NCBI GenBank assembly: GCA_038087875.1
Contig: CM075991.1
Coordinates: 14,138,001-14,202,000 of the forward strand
Reading direction: 5' to 3'
Source of the DNA: Malacoraja senta
Taxonomy: Eukaryota
DNA length: 64,000 bases
Position numbers and translations under genes: made by a program. Under the pieces are notes generated by a model. The model did no database searches and was not told where the DNA came from. It was given only the letters and a program-made list of their open reading frames with translations. Positions 13,606 to 54,547 of the stretch are shown here, piece by piece (position 1 is the stretch's first letter; each line of letters begins with the position of its first letter).

Positions 13606-14094
13606 AATGAGCGATGGATGGTCAGTGTGGATTTGTTGTGTTGGTGTGGTATCTGTAAAACTACTACAACAGTGGCTTCCCCTCTTTAGTTCAGGCCAGG
13701 GCGATGCCCCATTGTGGAATTGTTGGAGGCAGTGCCAGTGGTTCCAATCCTGTCTCTGCAGCTCGTAGCTGGCCCTGCTTTGATAAACCCTCTTACACTG
13801 AGCTCCTGTCAATGCTTCCTTCACTCTCCACGATTCCCTACTCATTATTCAACCTGCATCAACCTCTCTGACAGAGCATCACACCACAGCTCGCTTCAGA
13901 TAAAAATATATGCTGCCATCATCTCTCACTGACACTGATCTCGAACCTGCGTCTGCCACTTACCCGGCCTGGTGCTACAGGAAACATCTTCATCACAATT
14001 ATTCTGTTGATCATTATGCTGAACGCATTCTATGCAGAAGGAGCAAGGTGGTCTTGGAAGGAACGCTGGTTTAAACCGAAGATAGACACAAAAT

Positions 14095-14757
14095 ATAGCA
14101 AAAGGATTTGAGTATAGGTTCATAGCAAAAGGATTTGAGTATAGGAGCAGGGAGGTTCTACTGCAGTTGTACAGGGTCTTGGTGAGACCGCACCTGGAGT
14201 ATTGCATACAGTTTTGGTCTCCTAATCTGAGGAAAGACATTCTTGCCATAGAGGGAGTACAGAGAAGGTTCACCAGACTGATTCCTGGGATGGCAGGATT
14301 TTCATATGAAGAAAGACTGGATAGACTTGGCTTGTACTCGCTCGAATTTAGAAGATTGAGGGGGGATCTTATAGAAACTTACAAAATTCTTAAGGGGTTG
14401 GACAGGCTAGATGCAGGAAGATTGTTCCCAATGTTGGGGAAGTCCAGGACAAGGGGTCACAGTTTAAGGATAAGGGGGAAGTCTTTTAGGACCGAGATGA
14501 GAAAAACATTTTTCACACAGAGAGTGGTGAATCTCTGGAATTCTCTGCCACAGAATGTAGTTGAGGCCAGTTCATTGGCTATATTTAAGAGGGAGTTAGA
14601 TGTGGCCCTTGTGGCTAAGGGGTTCAGGGGGTATGGAGAGAAGGCAGGTACAGGATACTGAGTTGGATGATCAGCCATGATCATATTGAATGGCGGTGCA
14701 GGCTCGAAGGGCCGAATGGCCTACTCCTGCACCTATTTTCTATGTTTCTATGTTTCT
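14095..14757 (+). mobile_element. Young CR1 3' fragment
   Basis: Uninterrupted 164-aa ORF2 C-terminus (14167-14661) and (ttctatgt)n tail, inserted in a PLE end. Confidence 0.92.
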
Positions 14758-19412: not shown

Positions 19413-20019
19413 CTTATTGGCTTTGGTAATTGTAAATTATCTCTAGTGTGTAGGATATTGTTAGTGATGGGGGTGATCGATGGCCGGTGTGAACACAATG
19501 GGCCAAGGAACCTGTTTCCGCACTGTATCTCATAGAAACATGGAAAATAGGTGCAGCAGTAGGCAGCACCACCATTCAATATGATCATGGCTAATCATCC
19601 TAAATCAGTACCCCGTTCCTGCTTTCTCCCCATATCCCTTGATTCTGTTGGGATCTCTAAACAAAGGGTCTCGTGGGTCTGATCTGATCTGATAGCGTTG
19701 CGTGAATCTGCTTCACAGGGACTGTGGCAGTATGGGTGACAGAGGAGGGATGATGAGGCAGAGGTGTGAAGATGAGTGTACGTCTGGCATGTAATTAAGC
19801 TGCAGTGACCACACAACACTGCGGTTGCCAATGGGGTCAGAGTCTGGCCTTTCCGTGGTGAGTGACTCACCCCCTGAGTTCCCAAAAGCCTTTCCGTCAC
19901 ACACAGCTCGTGTCAGTAGTGGGACTAAATGCTCTTCATGCCTCAGTAAACGTGGGCTCAAAAACTGCACATGAAATCCAACAGCCTTCAGAACCAAAGG
20001 GCTAGTGCCAGGGAGTGAA

Positions 20020-21362
20020 GAGGTAATAATGGGCATTTGGATAGCAGTGAAAGGATTAGTCCAAGTCAACATGGATTTATGAAAGGGAAATCATGCATGA
20101 CTAATCTTCTGGAATTTTTTGAGGATGTGACAAGTAAAATGGATGAAGGGGAGCCAGTGGATGTAGTGTATCTAGACTTTCAGAAAGCCTTTGATAAGGT
20201 CCCGCACGGGAGACTGGTGACTGAAATTAGAGCACATGGTATTGGCGATAGGGTGTTGACGTGGATAGAAAATTGGTTGTCAGACAGGAAGCAAAGAGTA
20301 GGATTGAACGGGTCCTTTTCAGAATGGCAGGCAGTGGCGAGTGGAGTGCCGCAAGGCTCGGTGTTGGGGCCGCAACTGTTTACCATATATATTAATGATT
20401 TGGAAGAGGGAATTAGTAGCAACACTAGCAAGATTGCAGATGACACAAAGCTGGGTGGCAGTGTGAACTGTGAAGAGGATGTTAGGAGGTTGCAGGGTGA
20501 CCTGGACAGGTTGAGTGAGTGGGCAGATGCGTGGCAGATGCAGTATAATATAGATAAATGTGAGGTTATCCACTTTGGCGGCAAAATCAAGGGGGCAGAT
20601 TATTATCTCAATGGGGTTAGGTTAGGTAAGGGGTGGGGGGTACAGCGAGACCTGGGTGTCCTTCTACACCAGTCACTGAAAGTTGGCGTGCAGGTACAGC
20701 AGGCAGTGAAGAAAGCTAATGGAATGTTGGCCTTCATAACAAGAGGATTTCAGTATAGGAATAGAGAGGTTCTTCTGCAGTAGTATAGGGCTCTGGTAAG
20801 ACTACTGGAGTATTGCGTACAGTTTTGGTCTCCTAATTTGAGGAAGGACATCCTTGTGATTGAGGCAGTGCAGTGTAGGTTCACAAGATTGATCCCTAGG
20901 ATGGCAGGACTGTCATATGAGGAAAGATTGAAAAGACTAGGCTTGTATTCACTGGAGTTTAGAAGGATGAGGGGTTATCTTGTAGAAACATTTAAATTTT
21001 AAAAGGACTGGACAAGCTAGATGCAGGAAAAATGTTCCCAATGTTGGGCGAGTCCAGAACCAGGGGACACAGTCTTAGAATAAAGGGGAGGCCATTTAAG
21101 ACTGAGGTGAGAAAAAACGTTTTCACCCAGAGAGTTGTGAATTTGTGGAATTCCCTGCCACAGAGGGCAGTGGAGGCCACATCACTGGATGGATTTAAGA
21201 GAGAGTTAGATAGAGCTCTAGGGGCTAGTGGAGTCAAGGGATATGGGGAGAAGGCAGGCACGGGTTATTGATTGGGGACGATCAGCCATGATCGCAATGA
21301 ATGGCGGTGCTGGCTCAAAGGGCCGATGGCCTCCTCCTGCACCTATTGTCTATGTTTCTATG
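20020..21362 (+). mobile_element. CR1 LINE ORF2 fragment containing the RT core (degenerate)
   Basis: QHGFMKGKSC, YLDFQKAFDKV, SGVPQGSVLGP and IADDTKL. Stop at 20781 and frameshifts downstream; intact 3' tail. Confidence 0.92.
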
Positions 21363-21975: not shown

Positions 21976-22674
21976 GAAGTCTCTGAGATATGAGGGGTCG
22001 ACTTTAATCAGCTCAAGTGGAGCCAAAGTCACGAGCTGCCGCAGCTAAAGTGATCGGAGAATTTGGCGGAAGCGCTCAGAGACTGGGAACTGACAGGGAA
22101 GGGCGCAGTAGATCAAACACCATCATTAAGATGGAAGTTAATTCACTGAACACGACGACACACCATTAAAACGGAGCGGTGCTTGTGACAATTTGTACTT
22201 GAGCTGTGTTGAGGCAATGTCAACTGGCTGGAGATCACCTGAATGCCGCCTTTCAGCGCAGGTCAATGGTAATGTCTGTGGATCAACGACACTACGCAGG
22301 GTTTAATGGCGGATGCAAGTGAGGGTCAAGAGAGGTGAGACAATCAGCTGGAGACGAGACATTCCCTTGAAGGGTACAAAGGATAACGGAGTAAGATTAA
22401 GAAATAAATCAGGAATGGGCCAGAGAGACTACTGGCACCGAAGATGAAGGAGAATCCTAAAAGATCTGTAAGTATATTAAGATTAAAAGGGTAGAGGGTA
22501 AGAAAGTGGCTCTCCTCAGTAAAGTGTGGCAATCTATGTGTGGAGCCACAGGAGAGGTCTTAGTTTAGTTTAATTTAGTTTTGTTTATTTTTGTTTCGTT
22601 AGTTTAGTTAGTTTCAGTTAGTCCAGAGATACAGCGCAGAAACAGGCCCTTCGGCACCGACCAGCGATCCCCGC

Positions 22675-23245
22675 ACACCAATACTATCCCACACACACAC
22701 CAACACTATCCCACACACACACCAACACTAACCCACACACACACCAACACTAACCCACACACACCAACACTAACACACACACACCAACACTAACACACAC
22801 ACACCAACACTAACCCACACACACACCAACACTAACCCACACACACTAACACTAACCCACACACACTAACACTATCCCATACACACCAACACTATCCCCC
22901 ACACACACTAACACTAACCCACACACACTAACACTATCCCATACACACCAACACCAACCCACACACACACCAACACTAACCCACACACACCAACACTAAC
23001 CCACACACACTAACACTAACCAACACACACTAACACTAACCCACACACACCAACACTAACCCACACACACACCAACACTAACCCACACACACCAACACTA
23101 TCCCACACACACACTAACACTATCCTACACACACACACCAACACTATCCCACACACACACCAACACTATCCCACACACACACACCAACACTATCCCACAC
23201 ACACCAACGCTAACCCACACACACCAACACTATCCTACACACACT
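22675..23245. repeat. 18-22 bp minisatellite (ccaacacta[t/a]cccacacaca)n expanded from the SINE body
   Basis: The unit equals the SINE segment taacactatcctacacacac. Confidence 0.9.
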
Positions 23246-23798
23246 AGGGACAATTTACATTTACAGTTTTTGTCAATCGCTTTGACACTAGTTTCAGAAC
23301 CTTGATGTCATTTTTCACAACTCTAGATACAAAACTCAAAACGGTCACCACTTGTATCACAGGCTGTCCAACGTTCAAAACATTGCATTGTGTATTCATA
23401 TCTTTAAAGAAAGCTTGCACTCACAGAATCATTGGTTCAAACAACTCATTTATCATGAAATACCATAGGGACATTTCTTTAGATCACCCACACACAACAT
23501 ACACATAGTTTCACTGTTTAGTTGTTCGTACGACCATTAAATATTGTAGTACAAAATATGTGATACATGTTTCATCCTGTGCTCCACGTAATGTCACTGT
23601 AAAAGGATTCGTAGAGAGAATACCACAGACACAGTGGAATCATTGAACAAAGCTGAAATGTATTGATGAATACAAACTAAATGACAACATAGGTTGAATG
23701 AAAGCAACAATTACTGTAACAAAACAAAAAAAAAGTCCTGCAAAACCAACTGCCGTGTTCCTCACCTGGCTACTGTACAGTAAACAAAGGATCAACAA

Positions 23799-25739
23799 TC
23801 ACTCGTCATCCCCATCAACCCTGTCTTGTGGATTGGGCCACAGGTTCTCATCCACATCCGCGTAGATGTTTTCGTTTGCCAAACATCTTGGAAAGTACCT
23901 TCGCGCATGGCGAATCCAGGCCTGACACTGGTCTGCTGTAATGTCATCGCAGGCATTGTCCAGGGCCTGAAGAAGGGTCACTTGTTGATGCGGATGCCGA
24001 TCATACACTTTCCACCTCCATGTGGAGAAAAATTCCTCAATGGGGTTAAGGAAAGGAGAGTATGGGGGCAAGTACACAGTGAGGAACTGTGGATGGGCCT
24101 GAAACCATGCCTGCACCAGATGAGCGTGGTGGAACCTACGTTGTCCCACACAATGACATCAATTACACCAACAGCTCTACAGACTAGAGTTAGCTCATCA
24201 AGAAATGCAACAAGGAGCTCTGCATTGTATGCGCCAATCAGAGATCTACGCCCTACCACACCATCTTCTGATATCGCCACACACATACTGATGTTGGCCG
24301 CACGTCGTGCAGGTACTTGTATGGTTGCCCGCTGGCCAATTAAATTTCGCCCTCTCCTCCTTGTCTTGGCCAGGTTGAAGCCTGCCTCATCCACAAAAAC
24401 AAATTTGTGATGATTGTCATCCGCATCCAGGGCCATCACCCTCTATGTACAAAAAGACATGTTAGAAAGAGAATTACTGTACAGTATTGATTGCAGTACA
24501 ATGATGGGGAATTTTTCACAAGCAGGCATCATGAAACTGAACATACCTGAACATACTCAATCCTCAGTTGCTTCACTCTGTCTGCATTTCTTTCAAAAGG
24601 CACACGGTACAACTGTTTGAGGGACACCTGGTGCCTTTTCAGAACACGTGCAATGGTCGGCAAACTTATGGCTTCCACATTCCTGAAGAGATCTTCATCG
24701 TCCAGGATGTTCTGTCTGATTTCTCTAAGCCGAATGTCATTTCTGGCCCGGACCATGTTGACCACAGCCCGTTCCTGTTCCTCAGTGAGGAGTCTGCCTC
24801 TGCCTCCACTATTTGGTCTAGTCTCAATTCTGTAGGGAATATGACGGGAAGAATATGTCATCATACTGTAGAACACATGTTCATAGTCACATTACCTACT
24901 CTGTGCTGCACATTGGCATGCAGTGTACAATCATTTGACAATTACAGTAAGAGTAGCCTACAGTACTGTAATGTTTACTGTAGTGCATGCTGAAGACTTA
25001 CCGGTTCTCATTGCGGAAAGTTCTAATGATTGAGGCCACGGTTGATCTTCTAAGGTTTGGTTGTATCATTCTCGCTGCCTCAATCATTGTCATGCCATGA
25101 TTGATGACATGATCTACAACCATTGCTCTAATCTCATTGGAGACTCTTTGCCGTTGCTGTCTTGGTCCTTGTCCTCGACCCCGTTCCCCCACACCTCTCA
25201 AACGGGGCCCATGGCCACCTCTCAAACGGGGCCCATGGCCACCTCTCAAACGGGGCCCATGGCCACCTCTCAAACGGGGACCCATGGCCACCTCTCAAAC
25301 GGGGCCCATGGCCACCTCTCAAACGGGGCCCCATGGCCACCTCTCAAACGGGGCCCATGGCCACCTCTCAAACGGGGCCCCATGGCCACCTCTCAAACGG
25401 GGCCCATGGCCACCTCTCAAACGGGGCCCATGGCCACCTCTCAAACGGGGCCCATGGCCACCTCTCAAACGGGGCCCATGGCCACCTCTCAAACGGGGCC
25501 CATGGCCACCTCTCAAACGGGGCCCATGGCCACCTCTCAAACGGGGCCCATGGCCACCTCTCAAACGGGGCCCATGGCCACCTCTCAAACGGGGCCCCAT
25601 GGCCACCTCTCAAACGGGGCCCATGGCCACCTCTCAAAAGGGGTTCTTGTCCCCTGCCATTCCTTTGACCACGTCTTCCTCCTCTTCCTCCTCTTCCTTC
25701 TCCTACTTGACCTCTATGGTGCCCACCTGCCTGCTCCAT
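23799..25739 (-). pseudogene. Spliced DDE transposase: exons 25739-25002, 24829-24547, 24442-23799; frameshifted
   Basis: HTH-like N-terminus, FVFVDEAGFN, VWDNV and LPPYSPFLNPIEE. GT-AG introns of 172 and 104 nt restore the frame. A 1-nt deletion lies near 24138 and the repeat carries a net +1 shift. Confidence 0.88.
25192..25640. repeat. 24-bp tandem repeat (ggggcccatggccacctctcaaac), about 18 copies, coding PRLRGGHG
   Basis: Directly visible. Four units are 25 bp. Confidence 0.95.
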
Positions 25740-26439
25740 GTTGTATCACTACAGATGTTGTTGTGGATGCCACTTACACCCATACCACAAGGTCAGATCA
25801 ATCATCAGTAACGAATTGGTGTCACAGGTGGTGTCAATCATTGTCGGCATCCTGAAACTTTCATGATCTGAACATGCTCATCCTCACTTTCCATAAGACT
25901 ATGCTTTAAGAGTAATGCAACAGTTACTTGTCATTGTGAGCAGTTGAATCAATTGATAGTTAGATTATTGTAATGTAATGAATAGACAGTCATCTCAAAT
26001 GTGATGTGTGAATTGCATTTTGAAATGGTTCTACTTTGATGTTAAGTTGTGTCATTTTGAACAGGTGATTATAGTTCAATGGACAAATGATCTTTGGTTT
26101 ATGTGAATTGTATCCAAGAAATTGGAAAAAGTGTTAGAGTTTTGAAAAAAGTGCATTTTGATCATTGGTTGTGAGTTTTGTATCTGGAGTTGTGAAAAAT
26201 GACATCAAGGTTCTGAAACTAGTGTCAAAGCGATGGACAAAAACTGTATACCAAGCCAATTAACCTACAAACCTGTACGTCTTTGGAGTGTGGGACGAAA
26301 CGGAAGATCTCGGAGAAAACCCATGCGGTCACGGGGAGAACGTACAAACTCCACACAGACAGCACCTGTAGTCGGGATCGAACCTGGGTCTCTGGCGCAG
26401 TAAGACAGTAGCTCTGCCGCTGCGCCACCGTGCTGCTCA

Positions 26440-34394: not shown

Positions 34395-35774
34395 ATACAT
34401 AGAAACATAGAAAATAGGTGCAGGAGTAGGCCATTCGGCCCTTCGAGCCTGCACCGCCATTCAATATGATCATGGCTGATCATCCAACTCAGTATCCTGT
34501 ACCTGCCTTCTCTCCACATCCCCTGATCCCTTTAGCCACAAGGGCCACATCTAACTCCCTCTTAAATATAGCCAATGAACTGGCCTCAACTACCCTCTGT
34601 GGCAGAGAATTCCAGAGATTCACCGCTCTCTGTGTGAAAAAGTTTTTTCTCATCTCGGTCTTAAAGATTTCCCCCTTATCCTTAAGCTGTGACCCCTTGT
34701 CCTGGACTTCCCCAACATCGGGAACAATCTTCCTGCATCTAGCCTGTCCTACCCCATAAGAATTTTGTATGTTTCTGTAAGATCCCCTCTCAATCTCCTA
34801 AATTCTAGCGAGTATAAGCCAAGTCTATCCAGTCTTTCTTCATATGAAAGTCCTGACATCCCAGGAATCAGTCTGGTGAACCTTCTCTGTACTCCCTCTA
34901 TGGCTATAATGTCCTTCCTCAGATTTGGAGACCAAAACTGTACACAATACTCCAGGTGTGGTCTCACCAAGACCCTGTACAACTGCAGTAGAACCTCCCT
35001 GCTCCTATACTCAAATCCTTTTGCTATGAAAGCTAACATACCATTCGCTTTCTTCACTGCCTGCTGCACCTGCATGCCTACTTTCAATGACTGGTGTACC
35101 ATGACACCCAGGTCTCGCTGCATCTCCCCTTTTCCTAATCGGCCACCATTTAGATAATAGTCTGCTTTCCTGTTTTTGCCACCAAAGTGGATAACCTCAC
35201 ATTTATCCCCATTATACTGCATCTGCCAAACATTTGCCCACTCACCCAGCCTATCCAAGTCACCTTGCAGTCTCCTAGCATCCTCCTCACAGCTAACACT
35301 GCCCCCCAGCTTAGTGTCATCCGCAAACTTGGAGATGTTGCCTTCAATTCCCTCATCCAGTTCATTAATATAAATTGTAAATAGCTGGGGTCCCAGCACT
35401 GAGCCTTGCGGTACCCCACTAGTCACTGCCTGCCATTGTGAAAAGGACCCGTTTACTCCTACTCTTTGCTTCCTGTTTGCCAGCCAGTTCTCTATCCACA
35501 TCAATACTGAACCCCCAATACCGTGTGCTTTAAGTTTGTATACTAATCTCTTATGTGGGACCTTGTCGAAAGCCTTCTGAAAGTCCAGATACAACACATC
35601 CACTGGTTCTCCACTATCCACTCTACTAGATACATCCTCGAAAAATTCTATAAGATTCGTCAGACATGATTTACCTTTCGTAAATCCATGCTGACTTTGT
35701 CCAATGATTTCACCACTTTCCAAATGTGCTGCTATCCCATGTTTAATAACTGACTCTAGCAGTTTCCCCACTAC
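34395..35774 (-). mobile_element. Young CR1 ORF2 fragment with intact RT core, cut by the assembly gap
   Basis: Open frame 35774-34749: QHGFTKGKSCL, YLDFQKAFDKV, GVPQGSVLGP and KFADDTKL. Confidence 0.93.
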
Positions 35775-35974
35775 NNNNNNNNNNNNNNNNNNNNNNNNNN
35801 NNNNNNNNNNNNNNNNNNNNNNNNNNNNNNNNNNNNNNNNNNNNNNNNNNNNNNNNNNNNNNNNNNNNNNNNNNNNNNNNNNNNNNNNNNNNNNNNNNNN
35901 NNNNNNNNNNNNNNNNNNNNNNNNNNNNNNNNNNNNNNNNNNNNNNNNNNNNNNNNNNNNNNNNNNNNNNNNNN
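35775..35974. other. Assembly gap (200 N)
   Basis: Run of N. True size and flank continuity are unknown. Confidence 0.99.
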
Positions 35975-35999
35975 TTAGGTGCAATCAGATATAGTCAGT

Positions 36000-45695: not shown

Positions 45696-46608
45696 CTTAG
45701 CTGGGGGGCAGTGTTAGCTGTGAGGAGGATGCTAGGAGGCTGCAAGGTGACTTGGATAGGTTGGGTGAGTGGGCAAATGCATGGCAGAGGCAGTATAATG
45801 TGGATAAATGTGAGGTTATCCACTTTGGTGGCAAAAACAGGAAAGTAGACTATTATCTGAATGGTGGCCGATTAGGAAAAGGGGAGATGCAACGAGACCT
45901 GGGTGTCATGGTACACCAGTCATTGAAAGTAGGCATGCAGGTGCAGCAGGCAGTGAAGAAAGCGAATGGTATGTTAGCATTCATAGCAAAAGGATTTGAG
46001 TATAGGAGCAGGGAGGTTCTACTGCAGTTGTACAGGGTCTTGGTGAGACCACACCTGGAGTATTGCGTACAGTTTTGGTCTCCTAATCTGAGGAAAGACA
46101 TTCTTGCCATAGAGGGAGTACAGAGAAGGTTCACCAGACTGATTCCTGGGATGTCAGGACTTTCATATGAAAACTGGATAGACTCGGCTTGTACTCGCTA
46201 GAATTTAGAAGATTGAGGGGGGATCTTATAGAAACGTACAAAATTCTTAAGGGATTGGACAGGCTAGATGCAGGAAGATTGTTCCCGATGTTGGGGAAGT
46301 CCAGAACAAGGGGTCACAGTTTAAGGATAAGGGGGAAGTCTTTTAGGACCGAGATGAGAAAAACATTTTTCACACAGAGAGTGGTGAATCTGTGGAACTC
46401 TCTGCCACAGAAGGTAATTGAGGCCAGTTCATTGGCTATATTTAAAAGGGAGTTAGATGTGGCCCTTGTGGCTAAAGGGATCAGGGGGTATGGAGAGAAG
46501 GCAGGCACGGGATACTGAGTTGGATGATTAGCCATGATCATATTGAATGGCGGTGCAGGCTCGAAGGGCCGAATGGCCTACTCCTGCACCTATTTTCTAT
46601 GTTTCTAT
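45696..46608 (+). mobile_element. Young CR1 3' fragment
   Basis: RLQGDLDRLGEWAN...GYGEKAGTGY with one small deletion. Near-identical to the 14095 and 34395 copies. Confidence 0.92.
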
Positions 46609-52395: not shown

Positions 52396-54149
52396 TTATT
52401 ATTTTTTTTTATTTTTTATTTTTTTATTTTTTAGAAGTACGGTAGATTACAGTAATGTACAACACGTATATATTAATACATTTTTTGTACCGCTTCACTT
52501 TTTTAAACTTTAAGAAAGAAAAAGAAAGAAGTAAGAAAAGTGAAGAAAGTGCGCAAAGGTTGTGAAGTGCAAAAGAGTGTTGGGAAAAGAAAGCCCCTTA
52601 GAAAAGAAGTTAGAGAAGGAAGTAAAGTTAGAAAATAGACCCTAGAAAAAAAAAGAGAAAGAAAGAAGGAACAATCGCTCTATTATAACTCTTATACCAT
52701 ACTTCATAGAGAAGGAACTACCAACCAAGTCTGTTTTTATTTTACCTCCCATTACCAGGTCCAGATACCTTTTATTTATTTATTTGTTTTTCTAAATTAC
52801 TATTGCACCTCATGCTTGTAATAGGTCCAAAAACGTAGACCACGTCTTTTGAAATTGATCTACTTTGCCTACTAGGAGGAATCTCATCTCTTCCAGATGT
52901 AATGTTTCCAACATATTTGATGTCCACATTTTTATTGTTGGTGTGGGCGCATTTTTCCAGAATTTAAGTATAAGCTTTTTTCCCATTATTAGCCCATAAT
53001 TGAGTAAATTCTTCTGATACACGTTTAATTCAGGAATACCTTCCGATATTCCAAAAATAATCCATTCTGGTTTTGGTACCAGTTTTATTTTGATTAATTT
53101 TGAAAAAATATCAAATATTTCAAACCAGAATTTTTGGATTTTTGTACAAAAAACAAAAGAATGTGCTATGGTAGCTTCTTGACATATACATTTATCACAG
53201 ATTGGTGAGACGTTAGGAAAGATTTTATTTAGTTTGGTTTTTGAATAATATAATCTATGTAATGTTTTAAATTGGATAAGCGTATGTCGTACGTTGATCG
53301 AGCATTTATGCACCTGTAATAAATGATTATCCCAACTCTCTTTTGAAATTTTTATACCTAGATCTTGTTCCCAATCTCTTCTAATTCCATCTGTTGTGGG
53401 TATTTCTATATTTAAGATGATATTATATAAGTATGATATTAAATTAACTGATTCCGCCTTTGTCTTCATTGCTTCATCTAGTAAGTCGGAAGGCATATTA
53501 TAATAATCTTTTGTGTGTGTTTTCAAATAGTCACAGATTTGTAGATATTTAAAATATTGATTATTTTTCAAATTATATTTCAGTTGTAGTTGTTGGAATG
53601 ATAGTAATTTTTCTAATTCATACAGATCTTCGAGCGTTTTAATTCCCATTCTTTCCCATTGTATAAATGCTTTATCTATGATTGAAGGTTTAAACGATGG
53701 GTTATTGACTATTGGTATTAAGAGAGATAGGTTTCTTAATTTTAGATTCTGTTTTATTTGCTTCCATGTTCTAATAGTGCTATATATAATTGGATTTTTA
53801 TTATAATTTTTATTATTCAAATTTATTGGAGAGAGAATAATCGCTCCTATATTATTCGGGGAGCAATCCCCTTTTTCCATTATAATCCAGTCCACCTGCT
53901 GGGCAGAATTGTCCAGCAGGTGAATCATATTTTTAATATTTACTGCCCAGTTATAATACATAAAGTTAGGGAGCGCTAGACCCCCCAACTCTTTTCGTTT
54001 GTTAAGGTGTGTTCTTTGTATTCTGTGGGATTTGTAATCCCATATAAAATTTGTAATGTCTGAGTCCAGTTTTTTGAAAAACTTTTTTGGGAGATATATA
54101 GGTATTGATTGAAATAGGTAAAGGATTTGTGGTAAGAAAATCATTTTTA
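52396..54149 (-). mobile_element. 5'-truncated LINE-1 with A-rich tail and 17-bp TSD
   Basis: TSD tgtgtagggtagtatta at 52379-52395 and 54150-54166. T-rich tail on the + strand. Confidence 0.92.
52810..54149 (-). pseudogene. L1 ORF2 C-terminal part (post-RT region and CCHC zinc knuckle), uninterrupted
   Basis: LPQILYLFQSIPIYLPKKFF..FIW..GGLALPNFMYY...CDKCICQEATIAHSFVFC. About 446 codons without a stop, lacking the 5' part. Confidence 0.9.
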
Positions 54150-54547
54150 TGTGTAGGGTAGTATTAGTGTGCGGGGATTGCTGGTTGGCGTGGACTGGGT
54201 GGGTGGAAGGGCCGGTCTCCGCGCTGTATCTCGACACTAAACTAAACAAGCCTTTATCCTCGTTGCAGGTCGGCACAAATTTCCCAGGACTGAAGCGGAG
54301 GTGCGGAGATAGGCCATGCGGCATTGTGGAAAAGCTCTGAAGCATTAGGTAGGCTGCACTCAGTATGCCCACTGTTAGTTAAACCGACTGGGACACAAAC
54401 TTGGTGTAAAGTTGACAGGCTGTGGGAGTTCTCCATTTCTGGACATCTACACGCTATAACCCTGGATACATTGGGTGAACAGCAACCCACCTGCCCCAAG
54501 AAGGGTCTCCACCAGAAACGTCACCCATTCCTTCCCTCCAGAGACGC

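Follow-up and report, generated by a model that had tools for sequence, protein, structure and literature searches.

The window, a 64-kb stretch of genomic DNA from the skate Malacoraja senta, holds a DNA transposon of 2,983 bp at 23264-26246, with its gene on the minus strand (Table 1). An earlier note, made from the letters alone, had called the element complete and described TIRs of about 75-79 bp, a TA duplication and a clean empty site in the host SINE, and with regard to the ends it was right. The TIR arms are 79 nt each with 3 mismatches between them, their end sequence occurs at only two places in the window, i.e. the element's own ends, and a TA lies outside both arms. Across 23 nt, the reconstructed empty site differs by 1-3 mismatches from each of 5 other SINE copies present in the window; in a control 0 of 100 shuffles matched any SINE copy. 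The word "complete" holds only in part: the ends are complete, but the coding capacity is broken by frameshifts in exon 1 and exon 3.

The element splits its host SINE, which resumes at 23261 and below, and it is surrounded by multi-copy SINE sequence among LINE fragments; the LINE-like ORFs at 14086-14661, 20019-20783, 34749-35984, 45701-46201 and 52810-54378 are presumably of CR1 and L1 type. The downstream part of the SINE (22674-23244) gives way to a tandem array in which a 20-bp unit, derived from a motif inside the SINE, is repeated 27 times. We rejected the idea that the sequence is a bacterial IS630 contaminant, both because of this genomic setting and because searches of prokaryotic genomes returned distant IS630-type loci only, with 25-34% identity over long stretches.

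Table 1. Features of the element and its insertion site, in window positions
Feature	Position	Strand	Remark
TA target-site duplication, 3' side	23262..23263	.	
3' TIR, 79 nt, outer end CAGTTTTTGTC	23264..23342	-	3 mismatches to other arm
3' untranslated and subterminal region	23343..23798	-	13-14 nt shorter at 23780 than run copies
Exon 3: RNase H-like catalytic domain	23799..24442	-	Pfam DDE_3 above cut-off on both pieces
Catalytic triad in exon 3	D 24391-24389, D 24145-24143, E 24038-24036	-	
Intron 2, 104 nt, phase 0, GTATGT..CATAG	24443..24546	-	joined in contigs X5 and X2
Exon 2, 283 nt: GGRG linker, second HTH, start of linker helix	24547..24829	-	
Intron 1, 172 nt, phase 2, GTAAGT..CTACAG	24830..25001	-	separates two HTH subdomains
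Exon 1, coding part from ATG 25739: Arg/Gly-rich N-terminus and first HTH	25002..25739	-	
24-bp coding minisatellite RGGHGPRL, 18.7 copies	25192..25643	-	inside exon 1
5' untranslated and subterminal region, presumed promoter	25740..26167	-	presumed from sequence
5' TIR, 79 nt	26168..26246	-	inverted match to other arm
TA target-site duplication, 5' side	26247..26248	.	
Upstream part of interrupted SINE (repeat family D5)	26249..26362	-	continues at 23261 and below

The transposase gene and the state of this copy

Three minus-strand coding pieces fuse in frame through two canonical GT-AG introns, an arrangement that had been proposed for this DNA before and that we confirm, together with the motifs VDEAGFN, WDNV and LPPYSPFLNPIEE and the 35 residues that separate the second D from the E (DD35E), for which the frame break is read as X. 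The spacing is also 35 in P0001 and P0002, two skate models. Intron 2 divides the DNA-binding region from the catalytic domain. The HMMER check that the earlier note had suggested succeeds for DDE_3 but not for the HTH profiles, as HTH_32 on exon 2 (E 2e-4) and HTH_SB on exon 1 (E 0.005) fall below the Pfam cut-offs. The assignment as IS630-like is borne out by NCBIfam NF033545 (IS630), which scores 137.6 bits, against a cut-off of 100, on a skate model 97% identical to the copy; with Sleeping Beauty the family reaches no better than E 2.4e-5. The element shows the features of the IS630-Tc1-mariner group, namely a DDE_3-type domain with N-terminal HTHs, TIRs and a TA target duplication. In the predicted fold of P0460, a spliced Misgurnus protein (mean pLDDT 70, pTM 0.50, first 78 residues unreliable), exon 1 would contribute three helices, exon 2 three more and exon 3 the RNase H fold; the junctions lie at residues 128 and 222, and a long linker helix after the exon 2 HTH is modelled as crossing junction 2. 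The best PDB match of this model is the Mos1 transpososome (E 2e-11).

With regard to the intron borders, GTATGTTCAG is doubled at the intron-2 donor (24547-24556), creating a second GTATGT donor 10 nt upstream. Some skate ORFs derived from sequencing runs (P0366, P0367 and P0369, the last on 54 contigs) read LRIE-QMALD or MFRQMALD, which would fit a copy variant with a shorter start of exon 3 whose reading frame holds only when the upstream donor is used. We also considered, and dropped, a host exon in the skate models starting MMTCSS.., since their start ATG sits inside intron 1.

The earlier note had found a single 1-nt deletion in exon 3. That deletion is borne out, in that the base missing near 24137 is present in 4/4 compared runs, and for this reason we assign its loss to this copy or its assembly. 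Further lesions had been overlooked: another 13-14 nt are absent at 23780 and present in all four compared runs, and within the minisatellite, itself unnoticed before, 4 of the 18 unit spacings are 25 nt instead of 24, so that ATG 25739 is out of frame with the rest of the gene. Misgurnus models have the same N-terminus with only about three minisatellite units, from which it would follow that ATG 25739 is the likely start and that the array expanded here. Judged by its sequence the copy is dead, as no transposase could be made from it as assembled, and some of the indels may be assembly errors. A stronger version of this last point, that the copy is intact in the animal and all the frameshifts are homopolymer errors of the assembly, would suit the extra G found in a G run in three of the four 25-nt units, the exon-3 loss, which shortens a short homopolymer run, and the draft-type assembly indicated by a 200-N gap in the window near 35,800. 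We consider it unlikely given that the remaining 25-nt unit has a T and not a longer G run, and that the 13-14-nt deletion and several substitutions are private to this copy with respect to the compared runs.

Introns in relatives and in run contigs

Evidence that the two interruptions are spliceosomal introns, as had been claimed, comes first from relatives. Among fish-like metagenome loci with 45-65% protein identity, for which search windows were set from tblastn gaps, intron 1 (103-300 nt) gave a good GT..AG join at the same codon in 9 of the 11 loci examined and intron 2 (96-499 nt) in 10 of 15, and so the GT-AG boundaries do recur in other copies. The joins were weak or failed in L006 and L025 (intron 1) and in L004, L005, L013, L050 and L022 (intron 2); eight more fish-like loci had no alignment across the junction and stand outside these counts. 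Both positions are kept at this level of identity and the lengths and sequences of the introns turn over. In the distant loci L014, L016, L017 and L020 (30-35% identity) one frame runs across both intron sites, which makes it likely that the introns were gained in the ancestor of the fish/frog clade.

Protein models tell much the same story. A pattern search of 461 proteins found a clean junction 2 in 169 and a clean junction 1 in 112, and 24 of the 461 have an insert of 31-39 aa exactly at junction 2, in each case starting with V and ending with Q. At one locus in Silurus there are RefSeq isoforms both with and without this insert. RefSeq models, named "uncharacterized protein", already splice both junctions. 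P0257, a continuous 395-aa ORF from run contigs that is 59% identical, is clean at both junctions and fits a spliced transcript of a relative. The idea that a stop-free, in-frame intron 2 is a sign of selection was not accepted, as it applies to 4 of 13 loci from about two subfamilies and the search favours open frames.

The contigs bear on the skate element itself. In contig X5 precisely 24443-24546 is missing, and the join in X2 has the same intron-2 donor and a variant start of exon 3, where 4 different letters replace the first 6; both introns are retained in the DNA-like X19 and in X1. These run types are guesses (of the 24 runs, 18 carry an RNA label), and the flag on X5 is "probably DNA". 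An exact intron-1 join was found in none of the 3 RNA-like runs: X1 is unspliced, X2 has no coverage and X5 has a foreign join. The search for spliced transcripts that the earlier note had called for has accordingly yielded the intron-2 join and not the intron-1 join. The foreign sequence in X5, 28 nt at the intron-1 acceptor (24831), looks as if an outside exon had been spliced into exon 2. Taken together, the case that the introns are real and family-wide is well supported at the level of sequence, the run contigs being support and not proof.

There is precedent for transposon introns acting as a regulatory switch in the Drosophila P element, and a similar role can be imagined here, in which a retained intron 2 would yield a protein that binds the TIRs but has no catalytic domain, and full splicing would occur in the germline only. 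Several observations would suit such a switch: (i) intron 2 separates the DNA-binding part from the catalytic domain, and in this copy read-through ends after five codons (ORF 24529-24891); (ii) unspliced (X1) and joined (X2, X5) contigs coexist; (iii) both positions have persisted despite the turnover in length and sequence and (iv) retention isoforms and the second donor 10 nt upstream occur in the models P0395, P0366 and P0367. Our reasons for thinking it improbable are that in several subfamilies the retained intron 2 is in frame and stop-free, leaving no truncated product, that intron positions are often conserved without regulation, and that the unspliced contigs may be DNA or pre-mRNA. 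Slightly less probable still is the joint proposal that Hiker's three-exon transposase (see below) has never been described and that intron 2 is a splicing switch between transposase and a DNA-binding-only repressor, which would be the first such control in the vertebrate IS630-Tc1-mariner group.

Three models join transposase to host protein: P0027 from Garra (tetrahydrofolate synthase), P0068 from Polypterus (TRIM25-like) and P0099 from Coregonus (cytidylyltransferase-like). Either these are model errors or they reflect exon capture by way of the element's splice sites.

Hosts, tree and transfer

The best protein matches are RefSeq models of Amblyraja radiata and Leucoraja erinacea at 95-98% identity; cypriniform fish come next, at about 80%. 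Of 8,000 candidates scored in a profile search, 1,284 proteins reached E<=1e-5, and the named organisms among the 120 profile matches listed are ray-finned fish, a frog and a skate. In viral contigs there were 89 pattern matches, none of them confirmed. The copy differs from contigs of two other runs at 12 of about 1,410 letters (0.9%) and at 21 of 1,122 (1.9%), so the element is fairly recent, as the earlier note had supposed.

A quick tree of 86 catalytic domains (SH-aLRT, no bootstrap, no named Tc1 or Gambol rows; P0148, which was too short, and loci with short alignments were left out) placed all 32 fish and frog rows in one clade (SH-aLRT 99). Within it, the window's element forms a group with a moray eel protein and the rows of two skates (98), and this group is nested in teleost clades (98 and 99). 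Since the skate rows are nested among teleost elements, horizontal transfer into skates is likely, as judged from element sequences. Over 200 aa the moray protein P0368 (Gymnothorax javanicus) shares 91% identity with the skate element, and the moray eel is a candidate partner for such a transfer. The match of HKAmbrad to a cod consensus (see below) is a further pointer to transfer. Next in the tree come metagenome loci, both DD34E and DD36E, that are uninterrupted and 30-40% identical. Five of the metagenome transposases, L014, L016, L017, L019 and L036, are uninterrupted and DD36E and form a small clade (SH-aLRT 99) beside the fish clade, possibly an unnamed relative.

Inverted arms of 72-74 nt were found in L007, L011 and L012, out of 11 loci scanned. 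In L011 (68-2158) and L012 (80-2167) arms of 72-73 nt stand about 2.1 kb apart and the match is to the catalytic exon only; these are probably internally deleted non-autonomous derivatives.

The introns could also be those of a domesticated host gene. TLEWI, a set of intron-bearing Tc1-like genes of bivalves, is proposed to be domesticated (10.1101/656579), and the skate loci are annotated as genes in RefSeq. Nevertheless, the near-perfect TIRs and the TA duplication in a SINE, the presence of at least 5 Amblyraja and at least 3 Leucoraja loci at 95-98%, the frameshifts in this copy and a tree that does not track host phylogeny all argue for a mobile element, and we regard domestication as very improbable.

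Hiker and other named systems

Our main reading, to which we give a probability of roughly 0.8, is that the locus holds a frameshifted skate copy of a three-exon DD35E transposon of the IS630-Tc1-mariner group, likely Hiker, and that the published 372-aa Hiker proteins are read-throughs. Membership of Hiker taken by itself is a little more secure, and both it and the 372-aa match rest on names, lengths and host range. The relatives occur in ray-finned fish, frogs and a skate, a host range that fits the listed Hiker names and that is reportedly Hiker's own published one, and HKAmbrad, one of those names, we take from the naming pattern to stand for Amblyraja radiata. Hiker (DD35E/HK; Shi et al. 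2023, Mol Phylogenet Evol 188:107906) is cited in PMC13469147 and PMC12400950. Dataset S8 of PMC12400950 has 33 rows for Hiker, which include HKAmbrad, several Repbase Mariner entries and two TcMar-ISRm11 consensi; HKAmbrad is 90.2% identical to a cod consensus over 447 nt, and Hiker is matched there to TcMar-ISRm11 and to the Repbase consensi Mariner-3_DR, Mariner-1_GA and Mariner-7_XT. The new lineage that the earlier note had implied thus gives way to a large fish/frog family, most likely Hiker, and the element itself is probably catalogued already, like its family.

The Hiker references HK-Anagra, HK-Labcat and HK-Sanluc, in PMC13469147 Data 8B, are each 372 aa in an uninterrupted 1,116 nt, unlike the three exons found here and in relatives. 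This copy's ORF list holds no uninterrupted transposase ORF of about 372 aa. An ORF of exactly the reference length does occur in the clade (P0274, P0394, P0399 on 72 contigs, and P0403), in a cluster that includes Sander lucioperca, Misgurnus and Xenopus models. Its start is an out-of-frame ATG a short way ahead of the intron-1 donor (10 nt ahead in the DNA of L010); from there it reads through intron 1, retains a 31-aa in-frame intron 2 and is without exon 1, hence without the first HTH. Taken as a proxy for Hiker, it falls inside the 32-row clade (SH-aLRT 99; 55% identical). A single 372-aa span does not, therefore, separate Hiker from this clade, because the ORF reads through the same introns. 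In addition, 17 of the 33 Hiker rows in PMC12400950 Dataset S8 align from query base 1-12 to 486-672 (e.g. HKDanrer 1-654 with Mariner-3_DR 1399-2052), spans close to exon 3 alone (644 nt here); these may be DDE-only extracts. A plausible scenario is that the published 372-aa references are unspliced read-throughs lacking exon 1, and we consider this likely. The chances are about even that the three-exon structure is undescribed so far; it may correct the Hiker description. A literature search turned up no account of introns in the family, on a coverage that did not extend to the Hiker paper with its supplement, to Repbase or to Dataset S7, any of which may already hold the exon structure.

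The competing view, close to that of the earlier note, is that Hiker truly has no introns and that the element belongs to a separate sister family, DD35E and intron-bearing, that has not been named. The uninterrupted 1,116 nt of the three listed references speak for it, as do the TIRs, which at 79 nt here and 72-74 nt in L007, L011 and L012 are longer than the 16-30 bp that Hiker is said to have. We doubt this view, since HKAmbrad exists, the hosts fit the Hiker names, the 372-aa read-through ORF sits in this very clade and clusters with a Sander lucioperca model, and about half of the Hiker rows are exon-3-sized, with the reservation that these could also be DDE-only extracts.

If the element is indeed a three-exon Hiker, the prediction is that its intact relatives remove both introns when making transposase; with the first HTH encoded in exon 1, neither splicing step would be dispensable. 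By analogy with Tc1/mariner, the two HTHs would bind the TIRs, the DDE triad would carry out cutting and joining as the element is cut and pasted into TA sites, and repair would double the TA. The element may have entered skates by horizontal transfer from a teleost and then multiplied; this copy would have inserted in a SINE and decayed, and its intact ends could still be mobilised in trans.

On its own the copy is an ordinary dead transposon, and the interest lies in the family-wide intron structure. With a three-exon structure, the reference proteins on which trees and activity screens of a fish-wide family rely would need correction, and intact spliceable transposases, which ORF-only mining would miss or truncate, are candidate gene-transfer tools. 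The family would also provide an example of introns moved by horizontal transfer between teleosts and skates, and a direct test of splicing control over transposition.

Set beside named systems, the element shares with Hiker the DD35E spacing, fish-centred hosts, the TcMar-ISRm11 and Repbase Mariner links (PMC12400950) and an ORF of reference length in the clade, and departs from the listed references in its three exons, from Hiker in its apparently longer TIRs and, in this copy, an expanded and frameshifted minisatellite. Gambol (DD34E) and Dici (DD34E, fungi) are given as the families closest to Hiker in PMC13469147. By description both differ (spacing of 34, other hosts), and the four distant loci checked are without either intron. 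With bacterial IS630 the element has in common the NF033545 match of the skate model, DEAG and PxYSPxLNPIE motifs, and matches of 25-31% to plasmid IS630 transposases; it differs in its eukaryotic host, spliceosomal introns and Arg/Gly-rich N-terminal extension, and a long branch separates the fish clade. Traveler (DD35E/TR) shares the DD35E spacing and vertebrate hosts, but PMC7093834 describes it as closest to Tc1, about 1.5 kb long, with a single ORF of about 340 aa. An element of 2,983 bp with no single ORF is not Traveler, and this is ruled out further by the IS630 model that was passed and the marginal match to Sleeping Beauty. Finally, TLEWI likewise has ITm transposase genes cut by spliceosomal introns, which its description (10.1101/656579) calls rare in class II elements; there TLEWI is DD36E, without TIRs, low in copy number, confined to bivalves and proposed to be domesticated, whereas the element described here is DD35E, bears TIRs and resides in a skate, and the two are not the same.
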